A stretch of 64,000 bases of DNA, taken from NCBI RefSeq assembly GCF_946222835.1, contig NZ_CAMIHD010000002.1:45114-109113 (forward strand), written 5' to 3'. The translations under genes were made by a program, and so were the position numbers. The stretch comes from an uncultured Corynebacterium sp. GTDB lineage: Bacteria; Actinomycetota; Actinomycetes; Mycobacteriales; Mycobacteriaceae. The notes beneath the pieces are model-generated. The model had not been told where the DNA came from. It ran no database searches and saw nothing but the letters and a program-made list of their open reading frames with translations. Each line of letters starts with the position of its first letter. Position 1 is the stretch's first letter. Below are positions 1-45,800 of the stretch, piece by piece.

Positions 1-1253
1 ATGCCAAGGATCTGGCGAAAAAATTGGAGGATGCAGACGGCTCCTTTTCCGTCACCATGTTTACGGAGGATCAAGCTAAGGCCGTGCGCCCCAGGGTGGA
101 AGGCATGGACGGCGTGCGACTCAATGAAGAACCAGCTCTGGTCACCCGCGACCGTGGCCTGGCACCCGATCTGATGTCGCGCGTGCGCTCCGCGGTCCAA
201 GATGAGGTTGATGGCCAAACCGGCTGGTCCATTTCTGTGGTCAATGAGAATGGCGCAGCACTCTCTGATGTGGAAAAGCACGACCCTGATGCGGCACCGT
301 CGATCAAGGTAGGTCTGGACTACGATGTGCAGCGTGCCGCGCAGGAGGCGGTCAATGAGCGTGCCGATTCCCAGGCCATGCTCGTAGCCATCCGGCCCTC
401 CAATGGCGATATCCTAGCCGTCGCCCAAACCGAGAAGGCCGATGAAGACGGCGACGTAGCCCTCCAAGGTCAGTACCCTCCGGGCTCGGTGTTCAAGATT
501 CTCACCGCCGCGGCCGGCGTAGAAAAACAGGGGCTTAATACCGATACCATCGTTCCGTGCCCGGGCACCATGGATATCTTTGGCCGCGTGGTGACCAACT
601 ACAACGCTTTCGCCCTAGGCAGCGTTCCGCTCAGCCAAGCCTTTGCACAATCCTGCAACACTACTTTCGCGGATATCTCCACCAAGCTTAAGCCTGGTGA
701 GTTGAAAGACATGGGAAAGAAGTTTGGCTTCGGCGTGGAATACGATATCCCAGGCCTTACTACCATTACCGGTTCCATTCCGGAGGGCAAAGAACCACTG
801 GAGCGCACTGAAGCTGGCTATGGACAGGGTTACGACTTGGCTAGCCCTTTCGGCATGGCGCTGGTCTCTGCCACGGTAGCCAACGGCAAAACGCCAACAC
901 CTCAGCTGATTGAAGGCCATGAGACCAAAGCCTCCGATAAGCCGCAGCAGATTTCTAAGCCCGTGTTGGACAATGTCCGCAGCATGATGCGCCAAGTGGT
1001 CACCAGCGGTACTGCCCGCAGCATGGCTGCTGGCGGCACCATCTACGGCAAGACCGGTGAGGCCGAGATTAACGAGGGCTCGCACGCCTGGTTTACCGGC
1101 TACCGCGAAGAAGACGATATCGCCTTTGCCACCCTCGTGGTTTTGGGCGGCGGCTCCGATGTATCGGTAAATATCACGAGCAACTTCTTGCAGAAGGTCG
1201 ATGATTACCGTTCAGGCCCACACGAAGGGGCAGCGCCCCCAGCCGAAGGCTAG
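1..1253 (+). CDS. penicillin-binding protein, transpeptidase domain; 5' end lies upstream of the window
   Basis: The reading frame is open from nt 3 with no stop before the first Met at 24. It shows the SxxK active-site motif (SVFK) and a KTG motif (GKTGEAE) typical of PBP/beta-lactamase-fold transpeptidases. The position upstream of map matches the Mtb Rv2864c arrangement. Confidence 0.8.
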   Translation, partial: AKDLAKKLEDADGSFSVTMFTEDQAKAVRPRVEGMDGVRLNEEPALVTRDRGLAPDLMSRVRSAVQDEVDGQTGWSISVVNENGAALSDVEKHDPDAAPSIKVGLDYDVQRAAQEAVNERADSQAMLVAIRPSNGDILAVAQTEKADEDGDVALQGQYPPGSVFKILTAAAGVEKQGLNTDTIVPCPGTMDIFGRVVTNYNAFALGSVPLSQAFAQSCNTTFADISTKLKPGELKDMGKKFGFGVEYDIPGLTTITGSIPEGKEPLERTEAGYGQGYDLASPFGMALVSATVANGKTPTPQLIEGHETKASDKPQQISKPVLDNVRSMMRQVVTSGTARSMAAGGTIYGKTGEAEINEGSHAWFTGYREEDDIAFATLVVLGGGSDVSVNITSNFLQKVDDYRSGPHEGAAPPAEG

Positions 1254-1319: not shown

Positions 1320-2189
1320 ATGAGTAATCGAGGAAAGCTAAAGCCAGGCAAGCCCACCCCCATCCTCACCGTGCCGGAGAGCATTGAGCGCCCCGAGTAC
1401 GTGTGGAAGGACGAAGTGCAGGAGGGCATTGGCGAGCCCTACGTCCAGTCTCCTGAAGTCATTGAGAAGATGCGTGAGGCCTGCAAGATTGCAGCCAACG
1501 CACTCAAGGAGGCCGGCAAGGCCGTGCAGCCGGGCGTAACTACTGATTATGTGGACCGCGTGGCGCACGAGTACATGTGCGACCACGGCGCTTACCCGTC
1601 CACGCTGGGCTACCGCGGCTTCCCCAAGTCCAGCTGCGTTTCCCTCAATGAGATTGTTTGCCACGGCATCCCGGATACCACCGTGATTGAGGATGGCGAC
1701 ATCGTTAATATCGATATCACTGCTTATAAGAACGGCGTCCACGGTGATAATAACGCCACCTTCCTCGCCGGCGACGTCTCCGAGGAACACCGCCTGCTGG
1801 TAGAGCGCACCAAGGAGGCCACCATGCGCGGTATCAAGGCCGCAAAGCCCGGCCGTGAGATTAACGTCATTGGCCGCGTTATTGAGTCTTATGCCAAGCG
1901 CTTCGGCTACAACGTCGTGCGCGATTTCACCGGCCACGGTGTTGGCCCGACTTTCCATAACGGCCTGGTTGTCCTGCACCATGACTCGACCGTCTACCGC
2001 GATATCCTCGAACCGGGTATGACGCTTACCGTTGAGCCGATGATTAACCTCGGCTCCTTGGATTATGAGATCTGGGACGATGACTGGACCGTTCAAAACA
2101 CTGACGGCAAGTTCACCGCCCAGTTTGAGCACACCCTTGTCATCACCGAGGACGGCAACGAAATCCTTACCATCCCAGACGAGGACTAG
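1320..2189 (+). CDS. map: methionine aminopeptidase type I with actinobacterial N-terminal extension
   Basis: 289-aa ORF with the MetAP fold signature (metal-binding D, D, H, E, E residues; HGIP motif) and the ~40-aa N-terminal extension of MapB-type enzymes. Confidence 0.9.
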
Positions 2190-2320: not shown

Positions 2321-2354
2321 TAGCAAAAGGGCCTCGTTCGAAGAACGAGGCCCC
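2321..2354 (-). terminator. Rho-independent terminator for the minus-strand gene 2396..2797
   Basis: Hairpin GGGCCTCGTTC-GAA-GAACGAGGCCC (2329-2353) followed on the minus strand by a U-tract (plus-strand CAAAA 2324-2328). Confidence 0.6.
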
Positions 2355-2395: not shown

Positions 2396-2797
2396 TTAGC
2401 GGCGGAAGATTGGGTCCAGGATGTGCTGCGGGATGATGCCGTTGTGAACAGCGTAGTTGTAAGCGCCGATGATTGCGCCGATGACGGAGGTGATGCCCAG
2501 TGCGGTAGCACCCTTCTTCCAATCGGAAGCCCACTCCGGGATGTTTTCGGAGATTTCGGTGCCCCACATGTCCTCGCCGGTAACCTGGTTTTCAGGCTTA
2601 ACGACAGGCTTGCCGTCCTCACCTTCGGACCATGCACCCTTCTTCTTGCCCAGCTGGGTGAAGGAGCTGGAGGAAGAAGAGGAGGTGGTGTTCTCGTTGG
2701 TGGAGGAAGACTCTGCAGCAGAAGCAACGGCGGTGCCGCCGAAGGCTACGGTGACAGCGGTAGCAGCAGCAACGGCTGCGGTGCGGAAGTTACGCAT
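2396..2797 (-). CDS. small exported protein, paralog 1: signal peptide, Ser-rich acidic linker and C-terminal hydrophobic helix
   Basis: 133-aa ORF with a GAAAGG SD 12 nt upstream. It has an N-terminal signal peptide (MRNFRTAAVAAATAVTVAFGGTAVASA), a low-complexity hydrophilic region and a C-terminal hydrophobic segment GITSVIGAIIGAYNYAVHNG. It is paralogous to the adjacent gene 2846..3232. Confidence 0.65.
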   Translation of the reverse strand: MRNFRTAAVAAATAVTVAFGGTAVASAAESSSTNENTTSSSSSSSFTQLGKKKGAWSEGEDGKPVVKPENQVTGEDMWGTEISENIPEWASDWKKGATALGITSVIGAIIGAYNYAVHNGIIPQHILDPIFRR

Positions 2798-2845
2798 TAT
2801 GAAAATTACCTTTCGGAAGTTTTGATGAAGCCGAGTGGCTGTTGC

Positions 2846-3232
2846 TTAGAAGGAAGGGCCGTGTACGAAGAAGTTGTATACAGGGCCGATGATGCCGCCG
2901 AGCAGGGCGCCGATGCCTGCTACAACGGTTGCACCGTAGAAGACCTTTGCCCATGCTGGCTGGTCGGAGAAGTCCTTGGAAGAACCGAAGATGCCAACGC
3001 CGTTAGCTGCCTGGTCGCCCTCGAGCTTGTGGCCAAGCTCGGAGGACAGAGAGCCGCCGGACTTGCCGTTGTCATCGTCGCCGCCCTTTGCGGTGTTGGA
3101 CGGGTTCTGCGGCTGTACCTCGATCTCGGTGCCGTTCTGGTTGACGGTCTCGTCAGCGGAAGCAACGGTGGTGCCGCCGAAGGCAACGGCGAGAGCGGTT
3201 GCGCCAGCGATAGCTGCATTGCGGATACGCAT
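2846..3232 (-). CDS. small exported protein, paralog 2
   Basis: I moved the start to the internal Met at 3232 (MRIRNAAIAGATALAVAFGGTTVASA signal peptide) because an AAGGA SD sits 9 nt upstream. The long 183-aa ORF 2846..3397 has no SD and only adds a non-conserved extension. The C-terminus (VVAGIGALLGGIIGPVYNFFVHG) aligns with paralog 1. Confidence 0.6.
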   Translation of the reverse strand: MRIRNAAIAGATALAVAFGGTTVASADETVNQNGTEIEVQPQNPSNTAKGGDDDNGKSGGSLSSELGHKLEGDQAANGVGIFGSSKDFSDQPAWAKVFYGATVVAGIGALLGGIIGPVYNFFVHGPSF

Positions 3233-3554
3233 ATCAAAATTCCTTAAAAGTCGTACTTGCAAGGCTTCCACATTGGGAAACCAAAGTGTTATTGAATGTA
3301 CAGGGAACATCCAGAAACACGCGGTAGCCGTGTTCGTATCGGCTCTAGCCGGTGTCTCAACACAATTTAGTAAAACTGTTGTCCTTTTGCACGTCATGGG
3401 CCGAAATTCCGGCCATTAAATTTATTTGGGCCCCTTAAAGGAGTTGAATTCCCTGAAAATGCAAAGTAGGAATCCTTAGTCTGAAGTGGGAAGATATCTT
3501 ATAGGCTGGGAAGATACTGGGCATGTGTGAGAAAGATCACGTAACAATTTACTT

Positions 3555-4952
3555 TTACCACTCCAGTCCCAAAAGGGCATTTTCCACTACTTCTGGCAGC
3601 GCAGGGTGGATCCAATATTGGTTGCGAGTGAACTCCCGCATGTCCAATTTGTAGGCCATCGCGGTAATCAATTGCTGGATGAGGGTGGAGGCCTGCGGGC
3701 CCATGAGGTGCGCGCCGAGAAGCTGCCCTGTCGCGCGATCGGCAACTAGCTTGCAGATACCGGTGCTATCTTCCATAGCCCAGCCGTAGGCAACGTCGCC
3801 AAAGTTCTGGACCTTGACGGTGACGTCGAAGCCCTTCTGTCGTGCTTGCTTCTCAGTTAGGCCCACTGTGGCGATTTGTGGGTGGGTAAAGATGGCGGCG
3901 GGGACATTGTCGTGGGGCAGTGGGCGGAGATCTTCTGGGTGGAGCAGGTTGTGCTGCACGGCACGGGTCTCCGCATTGGCTACGTGCTTGAGCATATATG
4001 GAGAAGAGACATCGCCAAGCGCCCAAACGCCCTCGGCGGTGGTTCGGCCGAACTCGTCGGTGCTCACGCGGGCGTCGGCAAGCAGCTTAATGCCTGCCTT
4101 GTCCAGATCCATCTGATCGCCGTTTGGGGTGCGCCCGGTAGCAACGAGAATCGCTTCTGCTTCCACGGACTCACCATTGTCGAGCTCCAACCGCACTCCA
4201 TTGTCGGTCTTTTCGAGCTTGGTGCCATTGGCTATGCGCACGTCGAAGCGATCACGGGCAATCTGGTTGAAGCGCCTGGAAATGTCATCATCGAGGTGGC
4301 GCAGCAAGGTCTCGGACCGGTTGACCACGGTCACCTTGGTGCCGAGGCCGTCGAAGACGTGGGCAAACTCCATCGCGATATAGCCGCCGCCCACCACGAT
4401 TAAGCTCTCCGGCTGGTGGTCCATGCGCATAATGTCTTCGTTGGTGTAGTACTTGACGCCGGACGTAGCGTAAACCTCCGGAATGACCGGTCGGGAACCG
4501 GCAGCAATGACGATCTGATCGCCACTGATGACATGGTTGCCGGTTTGTATGGTCTTGGGGCCAATAAAGCGAGCGTGTTCGTCGTAGACGGTGATATTAG
4601 GGGTTTCCTCACCGCGGCGGTACTGCTCGCCGCCTTGGGCAATCTGGTCGATGCGGTTGTTAAAGACGCGGTCCACAATGGAGCTCCAGTCCACGCTGTT
4701 GACCTGAGCATCTAGGCCTAGCCGGCCGGCTTCGCGTGCAGCCAAGGCGATGTCGGCGGCATAGACATACATCTTGGTGGGAATGCAGCCTACGTTGAGG
4801 CAGGTGCCGCCGAAGGTGCCCTTTTCAATGATGGCGATTTTCTGGTCATCAAAATCCGGGCTAGGGATAGAGTTTCCGGAGCCGGTGCCAATGATAATGA
4901 GGTCGAAATGTTCTTCGGCAGCGGGCGTGTGGGACTGGTGTGAAGTAGTCAC
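3555..4952 (-). CDS. mtr: pyridine nucleotide-disulfide oxidoreductase, probably mycothione (mycothiol disulfide) reductase
   Basis: 465-aa ORF with an N-terminal FAD-binding GxGxxG (IIIGTGSGN) and the redox-active disulfide GGTCLNVGCIPTK. The location near map parallels Mtb mtr (Rv2855). Dihydrolipoamide dehydrogenase cannot be excluded. Confidence 0.7.
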   Translation of the reverse strand: MTTSHQSHTPAAEEHFDLIIIGTGSGNSIPSPDFDDQKIAIIEKGTFGGTCLNVGCIPTKMYVYAADIALAAREAGRLGLDAQVNSVDWSSIVDRVFNNRIDQIAQGGEQYRRGEETPNITVYDEHARFIGPKTIQTGNHVISGDQIVIAAGSRPVIPEVYATSGVKYYTNEDIMRMDHQPESLIVVGGGYIAMEFAHVFDGLGTKVTVVNRSETLLRHLDDDISRRFNQIARDRFDVRIANGTKLEKTDNGVRLELDNGESVEAEAILVATGRTPNGDQMDLDKAGIKLLADARVSTDEFGRTTAEGVWALGDVSSPYMLKHVANAETRAVQHNLLHPEDLRPLPHDNVPAAIFTHPQIATVGLTEKQARQKGFDVTVKVQNFGDVAYGWAMEDSTGICKLVADRATGQLLGAHLMGPQASTLIQQLITAMAYKLDMREFTRNQYWIHPALPEVVENALLGLEW

Positions 4953-27398: not shown

Positions 27399-28735
27399 GA
27401 AATAGGCAGACGGATGGAATGAACGCTCAGGATCGCTCCACCGCTGGCACGGTAACCGCACGCGAGGTCTTTGGCCTCGCGTTTCCCGCGCTTGGCGTAC
27501 TTGCGGCCATGCCGCTCTACCTTTTGCTAGATACCGCGGTTGTTGGTCGTCTAGGTGCCCAAGAGCTCGCCTCACTTGCTGCAGCCACCACAATTCACTC
27601 CGTGGTGACGACGCAGTTGACTTTCTTGTCCTACGGCACGACCGCTCGTTCTGCTCGGCTCTTTGGCTCCGGCAAGCGCGAAGCGGCGGTTGCAGAAGGC
27701 GTGCAGGCCACCTATGTGGCTCTAGGAGTAGGCGGGTTGCTCGCGGTAATCATGTGGATTTTCGGCGGAGTATTTGCCCGCGCCTTAACCGGTGATCCCA
27801 CCACGGCCGCCGGGACGGCCTTGTGGCTGCGCATCGCAGCTCTGGCTATTCCCGTTACTTTGGTGGAGATGGCCGGAAATGGCTGGATGCGCGGTGTCCA
27901 AGATACGAAGAAGCCACTGTACTTTACTTTGTCTGGCATGATTCCCGGCGCTATTGCGGTGCCCATTTTCGTCCATTTCTGGGGGCTGGCAGGCTCGGCT
28001 ATTGCCACGGTATTAGGCATGAGCATTATTGCTGCGCTATTCGTCCGCGAATTGCATAAGGAACATACCGGCTCCTGGCAATTTCAGTGGCATGTGGTAC
28101 GCGAACAGCTCATCTTAGGCCGCGATCTCATCCTGCGTTCGGCTAGTTTCCAGGTGGCCTTTCTTACCGCCACGGCTGTGGTTTCCCGCGTTGGTACCGC
28201 TTCTTTGGCCGGTCACCAGATCATGATGCAGCTGTGGAACTTCATGTCCCTCATCTTGGATTCGTTGGCCATTGCCGCGCAATCATTGACTGGTGCGGCC
28301 CTTGGTGCTGGCTCTGCGCGGCACGCACGCAGTGTGGGCAGCAAGGTGGCGTTGTACTCTACGATTTTCTCTGGCCTCTTGGCTGTCGTATTTGCTGCTG
28401 GTGCAGGGATTATTCCGCGTATCTTCACCTCCTCTCCGGAAGTGCTCGATGCCATCTCCCAGCCGTGGTGGATCCTGGTAGCCATGGTTATCGGCGGTGG
28501 CGTGGTCTTCGCCTTCGATGGTGTCTTGCTGGGCGCGGGCGATGCTGCCTTCTTGCGCACGCTGACTATTTCTTCGGTCCTGGTGGGATTTTTGCCGGGC
28601 GTTATCTTGGCCCACTTTATGGGCACAGGCTTAACCGGCGTGTGGTGTGGACTTGCCGCCTTCATTGCTTTCCGCATGGTGGGTGTCGTCTACCGGTTCC
28701 GATCGATGAAATGGGCCGTAGTGCAGGAGCGTTAG
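27395..28735 (+). CDS. dinF: MATE family efflux transporter (DinF-like)
   Basis: 446-aa ORF with 12 predicted TM helices. Synteny matches Mtb Rv2836c. Confidence 0.8.
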   Translation: MRNRQTDGMNAQDRSTAGTVTAREVFGLAFPALGVLAAMPLYLLLDTAVVGRLGAQELASLAAATTIHSVVTTQLTFLSYGTTARSARLFGSGKREAAVAEGVQATYVALGVGGLLAVIMWIFGGVFARALTGDPTTAAGTALWLRIAALAIPVTLVEMAGNGWMRGVQDTKKPLYFTLSGMIPGAIAVPIFVHFWGLAGSAIATVLGMSIIAALFVRELHKEHTGSWQFQWHVVREQLILGRDLILRSASFQVAFLTATAVVSRVGTASLAGHQIMMQLWNFMSLILDSLAIAAQSLTGAALGAGSARHARSVGSKVALYSTIFSGLLAVVFAAGAGIIPRIFTSSPEVLDAISQPWWILVAMVIGGGVVFAFDGVLLGAGDAAFLRTLTISSVLVGFLPGVILAHFMGTGLTGVWCGLAAFIAFRMVGVVYRFRSMKWAVVQER

Positions 28736-42877: not shown

Positions 42878-45800
42878 ATGTCTGTCAAAAATGCCTCTTC
42901 GCGCGGGACGCGCCGAAAGTCGAATCGTTCACGGCCATCCGGCCGCAGCCGGTCCGGTGCTGGCATGCCGGAGACCTTGGCCATGACGTCTTCGCATCAG
43001 CGCGCAGCGGCGACCTCGCAGGAGCGCACGGGGAGTGCGTTCCGGGCCGTTGGCAAGGGCTTGGGCGCGGCATTTGGCGCCACGGCTCGCGGTATGGGAA
43101 ATATGGCGCGAGGCATAAGTCATGGAATGGCTGGGCTCAAGCCCAGCGAAGATGCATATGACACTAAGGAGTACGAGACGACGAGGGAGCCGGAAGAAAT
43201 TTCTGCACGCGGGGAGAAAAAGAAGCAAAGCAAGGTTACTCGTGCGCGCGACGTAGATACGGAAGAAGACTTTTCCGCTATGGAAGTGGGCGAGTCAGAA
43301 GCGCGCGGCATTCAGGTAAAAAATCCCGATGCGGTAGCACTGGTGCTTATCGGTATTGCCATCGTGCTCGCGGCCACGGTCTGGTTCGGTGTCGCCGGCC
43401 AAGTAGGCGCCTGGGTGGGTAACATCGTGCGCTATGTCATTGGTGCGGGCGCATGGGTGCTTCCGGTGGCCCTAGTAGCTTTGGCCATCGCCCTTATGAT
43501 GGATATTTCCGGCCCTGCGGGTCACTTCAAACCGCGCATTGTGGGCGGAGTCAGTATCATCGTCTTGGCCATGCTGAGCCTCATCCATATCTTTGCTGGA
43601 ACCCCTGAGCTTGGCTTTACCCCGGACAGCGCTGGTGGTGCTGGCGGTGTTATCGGCTACGGCATCGGTGGCCTTTTGGAAACTGCCTTCACGTCCTTCG
43701 TTGCCGTGCCATTGCTTTTTCTGGTGATAATTTACGGCGCTTTGCTGGTCACCGGGATTACCATCCGCGAGGCCTACGAGTTGGTGGCCGATGCCATTGG
43801 TGCGGCTTTCTCACGCTTCGGCGGAGCCGAGGATGACTTTTATGACGATGAAGGTGATGACCTTTATAGCCACGTCACCGGCGATATCGATGACATTGCA
43901 GAAGGCCGCGAGCGCAGCGAACGGCCCGCACGACCTGTGACCAAGCGCCGTTCCTCTGAACGTGGTGGAAGCCTACGCGCTTTCCGACGCTCCTCCGAAG
44001 ACCCTGCCCCGCATGGTTCCTCTTGTCCGGTAGATTCCCCCGCTGCGGCAGAGGAGGAACACGCAACCCGCACCTTCAGTGCGCCAAAGCGCGGTGGTTT
44101 CCAGACTGTATCCAACTCGGCCGATAAGCCGGCAGAGCGCGAGATGGGGGATACCGATGAGATCCCAGTGGTAGAAGACACCGCTGTTTCTTCGCCCGCT
44201 CAGCCAGGGTCCGCGGATCCGGAACCAACCCGTGATTTGGGCACCGCACGTCAGCGTCCTGCTTCTAATTCTTCTCGCTCTGCTGCCGCAGCGGGTTCCG
44301 CTGCAGGCTCCGCTGTGGGTTCGGTTACTGGCGCGGCGGCCGGCGCTGCTGGTGCGGCAAGTGGCACAGCCAAGACTGCTGCCGCCGGAGCTGCAGGTGC
44401 CGCTGGTGCGGCAGCAGCCGGTGCTGCTGCAGGTGCTGCCGGCGCCGCAGCGGAAGGAGGTGCGGATGCGGTGTCATCCGCACACGAGAAGGCTCGCCAA
44501 CTCTTCCGTGAGCGTTCCGGGCGCGACGCCACGACCGGCGCGCAAGTGGATAACGCTGAGCCTGCTCCCGAAACCGCAGGAGCGACGAACTCTACAGCTG
44601 CTCCTGCACCTGCTGCGCAGTTTGGTAACGAGAATTACGCGGTTCCCAGTACTGACTTGCTGACTCCGGGGACTCCGGCCAAAGAGCGTACCGAGATTAA
44701 TGACCGTATTATCGAGGCCATCACCGATGTCTTCGAAGAGTTCAAGGTGGATGCCCAAGTAACCGGCTTCAGCCGTGGTCCGACAGTGACCCGCTATGAA
44801 ATCGAGCTGGGGCCAGGCGTCAAGGTATCCAAGATTACGAACCTACAATCCAACTTGGCCTACGCTGTGGCCACGGATAATCTGCGCTTGTTGACGCCTA
44901 TTCCAGGCAAATCCGCAGTTGGTATCGAGGTTCCGAACCCCGACCGCGAAATGGTTCACCTGCGCGAGGTGCTGGATGCGCCAGCCATGACCAGCTCGCC
45001 AGACCCTATGCTCATCGGATTGGGCAAGGACATTGAAGGCGAATACACCTCCTTCTCAGTACAGAAAATGCCGCACTTGTTGGTCGCTGGTGCTACCGGT
45101 TCGGGTAAGTCCGCCTTCGTAAACTCCATGTTGGTCTCGCTGCTTACCCGCGCTACCCCAGAGCAGGTTCGCCTCATCCTGGTGGATCCAAAGATGGTGG
45201 AGCTTACCCCGTACGAGGGTATTCCGCACCTGATTACGCCCATCATCACTCAGCCAAAGAAGGCGGCGGCTGCCTTGCAGTGGCTGGTGGAGGAGATGGA
45301 GCAGCGCTACATGGATATGAAGGCTGCTCGTGTGCGCAAGATCGAGGACTATAACCGCAAGGTTGTCTCCGGTGAATACCAAGCGCCCGCAGGTTCCGAG
45401 CGCGAGGTTCGCCCGTACCCGTACATTGTCTGCGTCGTCGACGAGCTGGCCGACCTCATGATGACCGCGCCGAAGGAGATCGAGGACTCCATCGTCCGCA
45501 TCACCCAGAAAGCGCGTGCCGCCGGTATTCACCTCGTGCTGGCAACCCAGCGCCCGTCCGTGGACGTGGTTACCGGTTTGATCAAGACCAATGTGCCTTC
45601 GCGCTTGGCCTTCGCCACATCTTCGCTGACGGACTCTCGCGTCATCTTGGATCAAGGCGGAGCTGAGAAGCTCATTGGTATGGGCGATGGCCTCTTTATC
45701 CCGCAGGGTAAGCGGCCGGTGCGCATGCAGGGCGCGTTCGTTTCAGATGATGAGGTCATGGCCGTCGTTGATGCCGCGAAGTCTCAGGCTGCGCCGAACT

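Follow-up and report, generated by a model that had tools for sequence, protein, structure and literature searches.

We analyzed a stretch of 64,000 nucleotides (nt) from an uncultured Corynebacterium sp. (contig NZ_CAMIHD010000002.1, forward-strand positions 45,114 to 109,113), hereafter called the window, and describe a pair of small tandem genes on its minus strand, designated gene A (type A) and gene B (type B), that encode exported proteins (Table 1). The original prediction for this DNA had placed 2 adjacent minus-strand genes of 133 and 128 amino acids (aa), each with a Shine-Dalgarno sequence of its own, between map and mtr, and this layout was confirmed. The map gene (1320..2189, plus strand) is convergent with the pair, a mycothione-reductase-like gene (3555..4952, minus strand) flanks it on the other side, and genes for a penicillin-binding protein (PBP), a hydrolase, and mqo lie farther out. 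The Shine-Dalgarno sequence of gene A, TAAGGAA, was identified 7-8 nt ahead of position 3232 and that of gene B, GAAAGG, 11 nt ahead of position 2797. An automatic open reading frame (ORF) reaches 3397; we placed the start of gene A at the ATG at 3232, with the stop codon ending at 2846, because its homologs all begin MRIRNAA.. and the upstream extension to 3397 is not conserved.

Pairwise BLASTP aligned the 2 products at 35% identity (E=1e-8) over nearly their full length, in agreement with the proposed paralogy, with the closest similarity in 2 regions, the signal peptide and the C-terminal W-A...G...N-[FY] segment. The proposed architecture was borne out as well: the signal peptides are near-identical, the middle is divergent and of low complexity, and the C-terminal hydrophobic helix is conserved. 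No terminator was found in the 48-nt gap between genes A and B, and 1 intrinsic terminator follows gene B; the 2 genes therefore form one operon. One of the paralogs had been thought to carry its own terminator: a hairpin does follow the 133-aa gene, but it serves the operon.

Codon bias in genes A and B was the strongest in the window, with an effective number of codons (ENC) of 28.7 for A and 27.7 for B vs a median of 45.8 over 45 ORFs, and the codons ACC, ATC, AAG, TTC, and TAC were each used at 100% in the 2 genes. Because of this bias, the high expression known from C. glutamicum (see below) probably holds for the pair in the window organism too. Database searches retrieved 184 and 240 homologs for the 2 window proteins, and a profile search of 1.84 billion representative proteins yielded 211 clusters; together with the codon bias, these counts establish that genes A and B are real, far beyond chance. 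A 274-aa plus-strand ORF (2423..3247), which has the lowest ENC among the long ORFs of the window (32.7), was rejected as a gene and represents the antisense shadow of 2 strongly codon-biased genes.

Table 1. Coordinates of the gene pair, its protein segments, and its transcript elements in the window.
Feature	Position	Strand	Details
Gene A (type A, first gene of the operon)	2846..3232	-	128 aa; based on ORF, homologs, and codon bias
Gene B (type B, second gene of the operon)	2396..2797	-	133 aa; based on ORF, homologs, and conserved order
Signal peptide of A	3155..3232	-	Residues 1-26, MRIRNAAIAGATALAVAFGGTTVASA; predicted cleavage after A-S-A; read from sequence
Signal peptide of B	2717..2797	-	Residues 1-27, MRNFRTAAVAAATAVTVAFGGTAVASA; read from sequence
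S-L-S-S-E-L-G motif in A (family "LSSKIG" motif)	3032..3052	-	Residues 61-67; alignment consensus SLSSKxG
Juxta-helix motif in A	2945..3001	-	Residues 78-96, G-V-G-I-F-G-S-S-K-D-F-S-D-Q-P-A-W-A-K
C-terminal helix of A	2861..2956	-	Residues 93-124, core W94 to N120; AlphaFold2 block-mean predicted local distance difference test (pLDDT) 71-87
C-terminal helix of B	2444..2536	-	Residues 88-118, then conserved tail IIPQHILDPIFRR; AlphaFold2 block-mean pLDDT 72-81
Conserved structured leader of gene A	3263..3355	-	3 stem-loops (SL): SL1 3355..3317, SL2 3312..3294, SL3 3282..3263
Promoter-like elements	3364..3392	-	GTGCAA 3392..3387, 17-nt spacer, TAAATT 3369..3364 in a conserved gnTAnAnT block
Intrinsic terminator of the A-B operon	2328..2354	-	12-bp stem with 8 G-C pairs, then a T run; -22 kcal/mol

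A paired family and its C. glutamicum members

The family appears to be restricted to Corynebacterium. Every named member belongs to this genus, save 2 differently titled records, "Clostridia bacterium" (L030) and "Staphylococcus chromogenes" (L041), that hold a Corynebacterium-type pair and probably reflect contamination or mis-binning; in L030, the whole mqo-hydrolase-mtr synteny is present as well, at 73-85% identity. The window itself belongs to the C. tuberculostearicum / C. kefirresidentii complex, its 2 proteins sharing 95-99% identity with homologs from those species. The family is uncharacterized, without a name, Pfam entry, or study of its own, and several homologs bear the shortened UniProt name "Or membrane protein." Neither window protein had a relative above noise in Pfam (searched to E 10) or NCBIfam, and a Pfam scan of 137 family members (E to 1) gave no match to PorB, PorA, PorH, or any other family. 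No relative and no porin were found by a profile search of PDB sequences, and no match was returned by Foldseek for the AlphaFold2 model against PDB. Weak matches to DUF4179, DUF5676, and DUF4148 fall on the signal peptide or the helix and were discarded as compositional, and glycine-zipper Pfam families (Gly-zipper / Rick_17kDa_Anti type) were not among the top 25 of 103 families weakly matched by the 137 members.

We examined the arrangement of the pair at 51 genome loci; the scan of the genome collection used a single peptide pattern and missed most species, C. glutamicum among them. The A-then-B order was identified in ~50 of the 51 loci, which included 38 plain A-B pairs, 5 A-B-A-B arrays, and 7-8 pairs with a Pro-less A copy that keeps the type-A tail, with a single copy at just 1 locus, on a short contig. 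The helix of type A usually ends in ..G-P-x-Y-N-F-x-V-H-G-P, and type B proteins end in ..A-A-Y-N-Y-A-V-Y-N-G-I-x-P. The mqo-hydrolase-mtr-[A-B]-map-PBP synteny was recovered in ~45 loci. Because the A-B pair is kept in fixed order across the 51 loci, the A/B duplication is older than the diversification of Corynebacterium, and the 2 copies have stayed side by side ever since. The retention of both types in this order across the genus is also our main argument that A and B are needed, or act, together.

Double pairs of the A-B-A-B type were located at the syntenic site in L018-L021 and L026 (4001-5550). At 6 loci (L041, L042, L044, L046, L047, and L051), the pair sits away from the mtr-map neighborhood, and at the non-syntenic loci, a naive survey of ORFs gave too much noise in high-G+C DNA to be informative. 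The L041 pair lies between ORFs that resemble, by eye on their N-termini, rml (dTDP-rhamnose) genes and a UDP-GlcNAc 2-epimerase gene.

This synteny matches the C. glutamicum interval from cg2192 (mqo) to cg2199 (pbp), in which cg2195 and cg2196 are listed as "putative secreted or membrane proteins." Judged by sequence, type A is the ortholog of C. glutamicum NCgl1929/Cgl2004/cg2195, and type B corresponds to NCgl1930/Cgl2005/cg2196 by position only. The window A protein aligned with C. glutamicum P0411 over its full length at 36% identity by BLASTP (E=1e-18) and at a probability of 99.6% by hhalign. The 3' end of NCgl1929, printed in the DNA upstream of NCgl1930 (PMC7268698 supplement), translates to AKNMYDLTVLGGIASLLG.IVFPAYNYLV..GVIKG. 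This sequence corresponds to the C-terminal end of P0307/P0411 (115 aa), a family member with a 90% cluster made up of C. glutamicum and C. suranareeae proteins; 3 mismatched residues in the translation look like PDF-reading errors. The size of P0411 (115 aa) agrees with the 12 kDa of Cgl2004, and the product of the next gene, Cgl2005, is 13 kDa. A type B protein of C. glutamicum was not found by a homolog search with C. lubricantis type B (2 matches) or by cluster look-ups of candidate representatives.

Published data sets cover both C. glutamicum genes. By RNA sequencing, NCgl1929 is the highest transcript, at 27,617 transcripts per million (PMC7268698), and the 180-bp fragment upstream of cg2195 is a strong promoter known as "P180" (PMC6303301). 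Cgl2005 (Q8NP21) accounts for ~20% of the secretome, is assigned to the Sec class by SignalP, and is, like PorB, among the most abundant proteins of the culture supernatant (PMC10896948). Further, in an enrichment with O-AlkTMM, an analog of trehalose monomycolate, Cgl2004 was enriched 3.9-fold (p=0.034) and Cgl2005 4.7-fold (p=0.012) (PMC11066868 Table S6), with PorB in the same curated list; per the authors' text, PorH was enriched as well (PMC11066868).

Architecture of the 2 proteins

The signal peptides of A and B are of the Sec type, with a positive n-region MR(N)(F)R..., an Ala-rich h-region, and VASA before D/A-E, and the A-x-A cleavage motif is near-invariant in the family (A24 and A26 each at least 90%). 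Cleavage there would leave mature proteins of 10.4 and 11.4 kDa with isoelectric points of 4.4 and 5.0. The twin-arginine (Tat) motif is absent from both signal peptides, in which the 2 Arg are separated (R-x-R or R-x-x-R). No lipobox Cys was identified, as neither window protein has a Cys in its signal peptide or mature part, and no LPXTG-like sortase motif was found before the helix, where the conserved motif is P-x-W-A-K. The pair belongs to none of the PorA/PorH, PorB/PorC, lipoprotein, Tat, sortase, or glycine-zipper Pfam groups.

The signal peptide is the best-conserved region of the family, with a mean pairwise identity of 56.8% over the N-terminal 27 residues in the family alignment, vs 30.8% over the C-terminal 50 residues and 19.1% over the linker. 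A signal peptide that is better conserved than the mature part is the reverse of the usual pattern in secreted proteins. This conservation would be explained if the N-terminus were an uncleaved signal anchor, the protein then sitting in the plasma membrane as a hairpin of 2 helices joined by an acidic loop on the outside, and 13 of the 137 members have weak, sub-threshold similarity to families of unknown function with 2 transmembrane segments (DUF5676). We regard such a hairpin as highly improbable: the A-x-A site is nearly invariant, the Ala-rich h-region is weakly hydrophobic (simple Hessa sum ~+2.4), and the C. glutamicum protein is a major soluble component of the supernatant classed as a Sec substrate.

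The segment between the signal peptide and the helix is acidic, rich in Ser, Gly, Thr, Asn, and Asp, and disordered (AlphaFold2 pLDDT <50), and its length across the family varies between 24 and 223 residues (median 70). Among 125 representatives, 42 carry an LSSKIG-like motif and 95 an xSS motif within the linker; the corresponding S-L-S-S-E-L-G of A is a candidate O-acylation site. The family consensus of the juxta-helix motif is G-x-D-[IL]-F-G-S-S-K-D ... P-x-W-A-K, with column frequencies over 143 sequences of 92% for G, 82% for P, 91% for W, and 72% for A. In C. glutamicum, mapped O-mycoloylation sites lie at Ser in flexible segments rich in Ser, Gly, and Ala and follow no strict consensus (PMC11066868). 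Ser residues in flexible segments of this kind were identified in GGSLSSELG and IFGSSK of the window proteins and in NLSSGFAALSSGGAAAVG of the C. glutamicum protein. A likeness between IFGSSK..WAK and FLGASSKWAG of PorA was dropped, as the shared stretch is brief and low in complexity.

The C-terminal segment was predicted as a single hydrophobic helix, with small residues (Gly, Ala, Ser, Thr) at helix positions 8, 11, 15, 18, and 22, all on one face, and a small-residue periodicity that peaks at 100-103 degrees. From the Trp (91%) to the Asn (97%), the spacing is constant: 25 residues for type A, 24 for type B. Belts of Trp and Tyr/Phe flank the helix. Kyte-Doolittle hydrophobicity of the helix of A reaches 2.0. 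Its simple Hessa sum is +1.1; the family median is +0.9, with negative sums in 35 of 137 members, and the M13 coat anchor scores +1.0, PorA +7, and PorH +9. Type B helices are only marginally hydrophobic, at +3.9 in the window. Since type A and the M13 coat anchor have similar values, the simple Hessa sum fails to decide whether the helix stops in the Sec translocon. K or R is absent after the helix in 51 of 143 sequences.

Membrane placement and possible role

Only a handful of proteins are known from the mycomembrane, the mycolic-acid outer membrane of Corynebacterium and its relatives. We favor the reading, at a probability of roughly 0.5, that A and B are abundant, obligatorily paired envelope proteins that form hetero-oligomers, are anchored by their helices, carry O-linked mycolate, and are associated with the mycomembrane. 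Under this reading, both proteins would be exported via Sec with cleavage of their signal peptides, and the small-residue (Gly-zipper-like) helix faces of A and B would pack together into hetero-oligomers in an envelope membrane. The mycoloyltransferase Cmt1 would attach O-linked mycolate to Ser residues of the flexible motifs and thereby tie the complex to the mycomembrane, and the pair would then make up a bulk component, probably structural or organizing, that is easily shed into the medium. Hetero-oligomerization, the acylation sites, the membrane that holds the helix, and the physiological role are points that we infer. The F-G-S-S-K motif lies ~10 residues ahead of the helix, so a mycolate placed on it would enter the helix's own membrane. 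The authors of the probe study note that small hydrophobic proteins, validated porins included, escape their site-mapping method (PMC11066868).

Several observations weigh against this placement. The probe enrichment was seen in 1 of 3 mass spectrometry studies and was modest in fold, with background counts in the no-probe controls of the kind that abundant proteins can give non-specifically (PMC11066868). Cgl2004 and Cgl2005 are absent from the lists of mapped O-mycoloylation sites, with no site mapped in either, and are unflagged in the table's column for the mycomembrane proteome of Marchand et al.; the plasma-membrane proteins CtaC and QcrC were also labeled by the probe (PMC11066868). The match of B to Cgl2005 by position only counts here as well. 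Further, the helix matches true plasma-membrane anchors in hydrophobicity and lies far above PorA or PorH, and its C-flank has a net charge of +0.66 vs -0.24 for the N-flank, as in type I plasma-membrane proteins.

These last features suit ordinary type I proteins of the plasma membrane, with a cleaved signal peptide, a stop-transfer C-terminal helix, an N-out/C-in orientation, and an acidic disordered ectodomain in the periplasm-like space; on this view, the probe enrichment and the abundance in the supernatant would be by-products of extreme expression, by way of shedding, lysis, or vesicles. A Sec signal peptide combined with a single apolar helix of 22-25 residues between Trp and Tyr/Phe belts, a hydrophobicity comparable to that of the M13 coat anchor, and a net positive C-flank (B ends ..FRR) are what such an anchor would be expected to have, and it would also account for the known plasma-membrane proteins among the mycoloylome lists and for the pair missing from the earlier mycomembrane proteome column. 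This placement, a live alternative for the predicted helix, is nevertheless rather unlikely in our view. A share of ~20% of supernatant protein is hard to square with a firmly anchored integral protein, and Cgl2004 and Cgl2005 were both enriched in the experiment that also recovered PorB and, as its authors state, PorH. The missing K/R after the helix in 51 of 143 sequences and the marginal hydrophobicity of type B helices also speak against a stop-transfer anchor, and a mycoloyl group on the Ser motif ~10 residues away would share the membrane of the helix. Glycophorin A-type type I proteins, which dimerize through small-xxx-small motifs, share with A/B the cleaved signal peptide, the unstructured ectodomain rich in Ser and Thr, and the Gly/Ala/Ser helix face; the resemblance is one of design without homology, and the abundance, supernatant location, and probe labeling of A/B would be unexpected for anchors of that kind.

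The pair also invites comparison with the corynebacterial channel proteins. In C. glutamicum, PorA and PorH are O-mycoloylated components of the mycomembrane. They are modeled as a hetero-oligomeric pore and, at 45 and 57 aa, both lack a signal peptide (PMC13643282). Like them, A and B are encoded by 2 small tandem genes in one operon, are restricted to the genus, and are predicted to be helical; both partners are needed in the PorA/PorH system, and the conserved A-then-B order suggests the same for A/B. Recovery of Cgl2004 and Cgl2005 in the same mycolate-donor probe experiment adds to the likeness. In contrast, A and B measure 128 and 133 aa, each with a Sec signal peptide, an extended disordered stretch, and a hydrophobic helix of transmembrane-like character, whereas the helices of PorA and PorH are amphipathic, and no sequence similarity was detectable.

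The original prediction had offered a likeness to the tandem porB/porC arrangement, flagged there as speculation. As homology this does not hold, since no Pfam match was found for the 2 window proteins or for 137 family members, the mature window proteins lack Cys, and their architecture differs from that of the globular helical PorB; as an analogy it gains indirect support from the O-AlkTMM enrichment of Cgl2004 and Cgl2005 together with PorB and from the abundance of Cgl2005 in the supernatant. PorB and PorC are O-mycoloylated anion channels, and A/B share with them the tandem paralogous genes, the Sec signal peptides, and a mature size of ~10 kDa, as well as, for the C. glutamicum proteins, the abundance in culture supernatant and the enrichment by the probe. 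PorB is a compact helical bundle with a disulfide, whereas A/B show no PorB-family match, have no Cys, and are mostly disordered apart from one hydrophobic helix.

A Sec-dependent analog of PorA/PorH or PorB/PorC, in which the small-residue faces would come together as a ring, in the manner of glycine-zipper channels, to form a hetero-oligomeric alpha-helical channel of the mycomembrane, is to our minds very unlikely. It would fit the co-transcribed tandem A/B genes conserved across the genus, as with porH-porA in C. glutamicum, the Gly/Ala/Ser stripe along one helix face, and the high abundance and enrichment alongside known porins. No sequence or fold similarity to any porin was found, however, the helix has no polar pore-lining face (besides Thr/Ser, the terminal Asn is its sole conserved polar residue), and a disordered segment of 24-223 residues is atypical of channels.

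Among lipid-modified envelope proteins, Lpp-like lipoproteins are comparable in being small, among the top-expressed envelope proteins, and lipid-modified (putatively so in A/B), and the small-residue stripe would likewise suit oligomerization. They differ in that the lipid of A/B would be an O-linked mycolate on Ser and not an N-terminal acyl-Cys, with no lipobox Cys present.

The pair joins genus-wide conservation with the top transcript of C. glutamicum, that of the A ortholog, and with about one-fifth of the secreted protein, the product of its neighbor. If the favored reading of O-mycoloylated, mycomembrane-resident proteins is true, the pair would be the most abundant protein of this kind and would offer a handle on envelope assembly, vesicle shedding, and permeability, with relevance to skin commensals such as the C. 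tuberculostearicum complex. On the practical side, the "P180" promoter is already in use, and the conserved signal peptide and structured leader are candidate parts for high-yield secretion and expression.

Leader RNA and upstream elements

Within ~130 nt before gene A, 3 hairpins recur in per-species folds across the genus, although their sequences differ (Table 1). Over 24 leader sequences, 82.7% of cells were paired vs at most 46% when the 3' partner was slid by 1-3 columns, a measure that the drawing of the structure from the window sequence favors. Compensatory changes are free of this bias: covariation was identified in 12 pairs, with 32 cells changed on both sides, and in SL2 alone, 5 of 6 pairs had compensatory changes. 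None of 500 shuffles reached the observed values for covariation score and for number of both-sided changes. The folding z-score of the leader was -2.3. Rfam held no match for the leader, and RNAalifold predicted no structure on the MAFFT leader alignment; the structure was taken from the per-species folds and pair counts. As an alternative, a conserved AACAC that follows SL2 could base-pair with the 3' half of SL1's outer stem.

A simple sigma-70 scan upstream of gene A found nothing. We take TAAATT to be a -10 element on the basis of the corynebacterial -10 consensus, and from the placement of TAAATT and GTGCAA, transcription is predicted to start at the foot of SL1. This suggests that SL1 is a 5'-terminal stabilizing hairpin of a very abundant mRNA. 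A parallel is the stabilizing 5' untranslated region of E. coli ompA mRNA, likewise a long structured leader that precedes a very abundant envelope-protein gene and carries a hairpin at, or close to, the predicted 5' end; the 2 leaders are unrelated in sequence.

A broader proposal would make the A/B pair the major structural protein of the corynebacterial outer envelope, a new class of hetero-oligomer that is exported by Sec, anchored by its helices, and O-mycoloylated, organizing or tethering the mycomembrane in a manner functionally like Lpp or OmpA, or else a new alpha-helical mycomembrane pore, with its expression supported by this undescribed three-hairpin leader RNA; we consider this combination unlikely.

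Farther upstream, a palindrome, CGTGATCTTTCTCACA, was noted on the minus strand at 3526-3541, 14 nt after the mtr stop, with several positions invariant in an upstream alignment of 9 loci. It resembles the CRP/GlxR consensus, TGTGA-N6-TCACA. On the other side of the pair, map is adjoined by a partial PBP/FtsI-like gene (24-1253, plus strand) that is, by position, the apparent counterpart of C. glutamicum Cgl2008, a protein listed as O-mycoloylated at S534 (PMC11066868).

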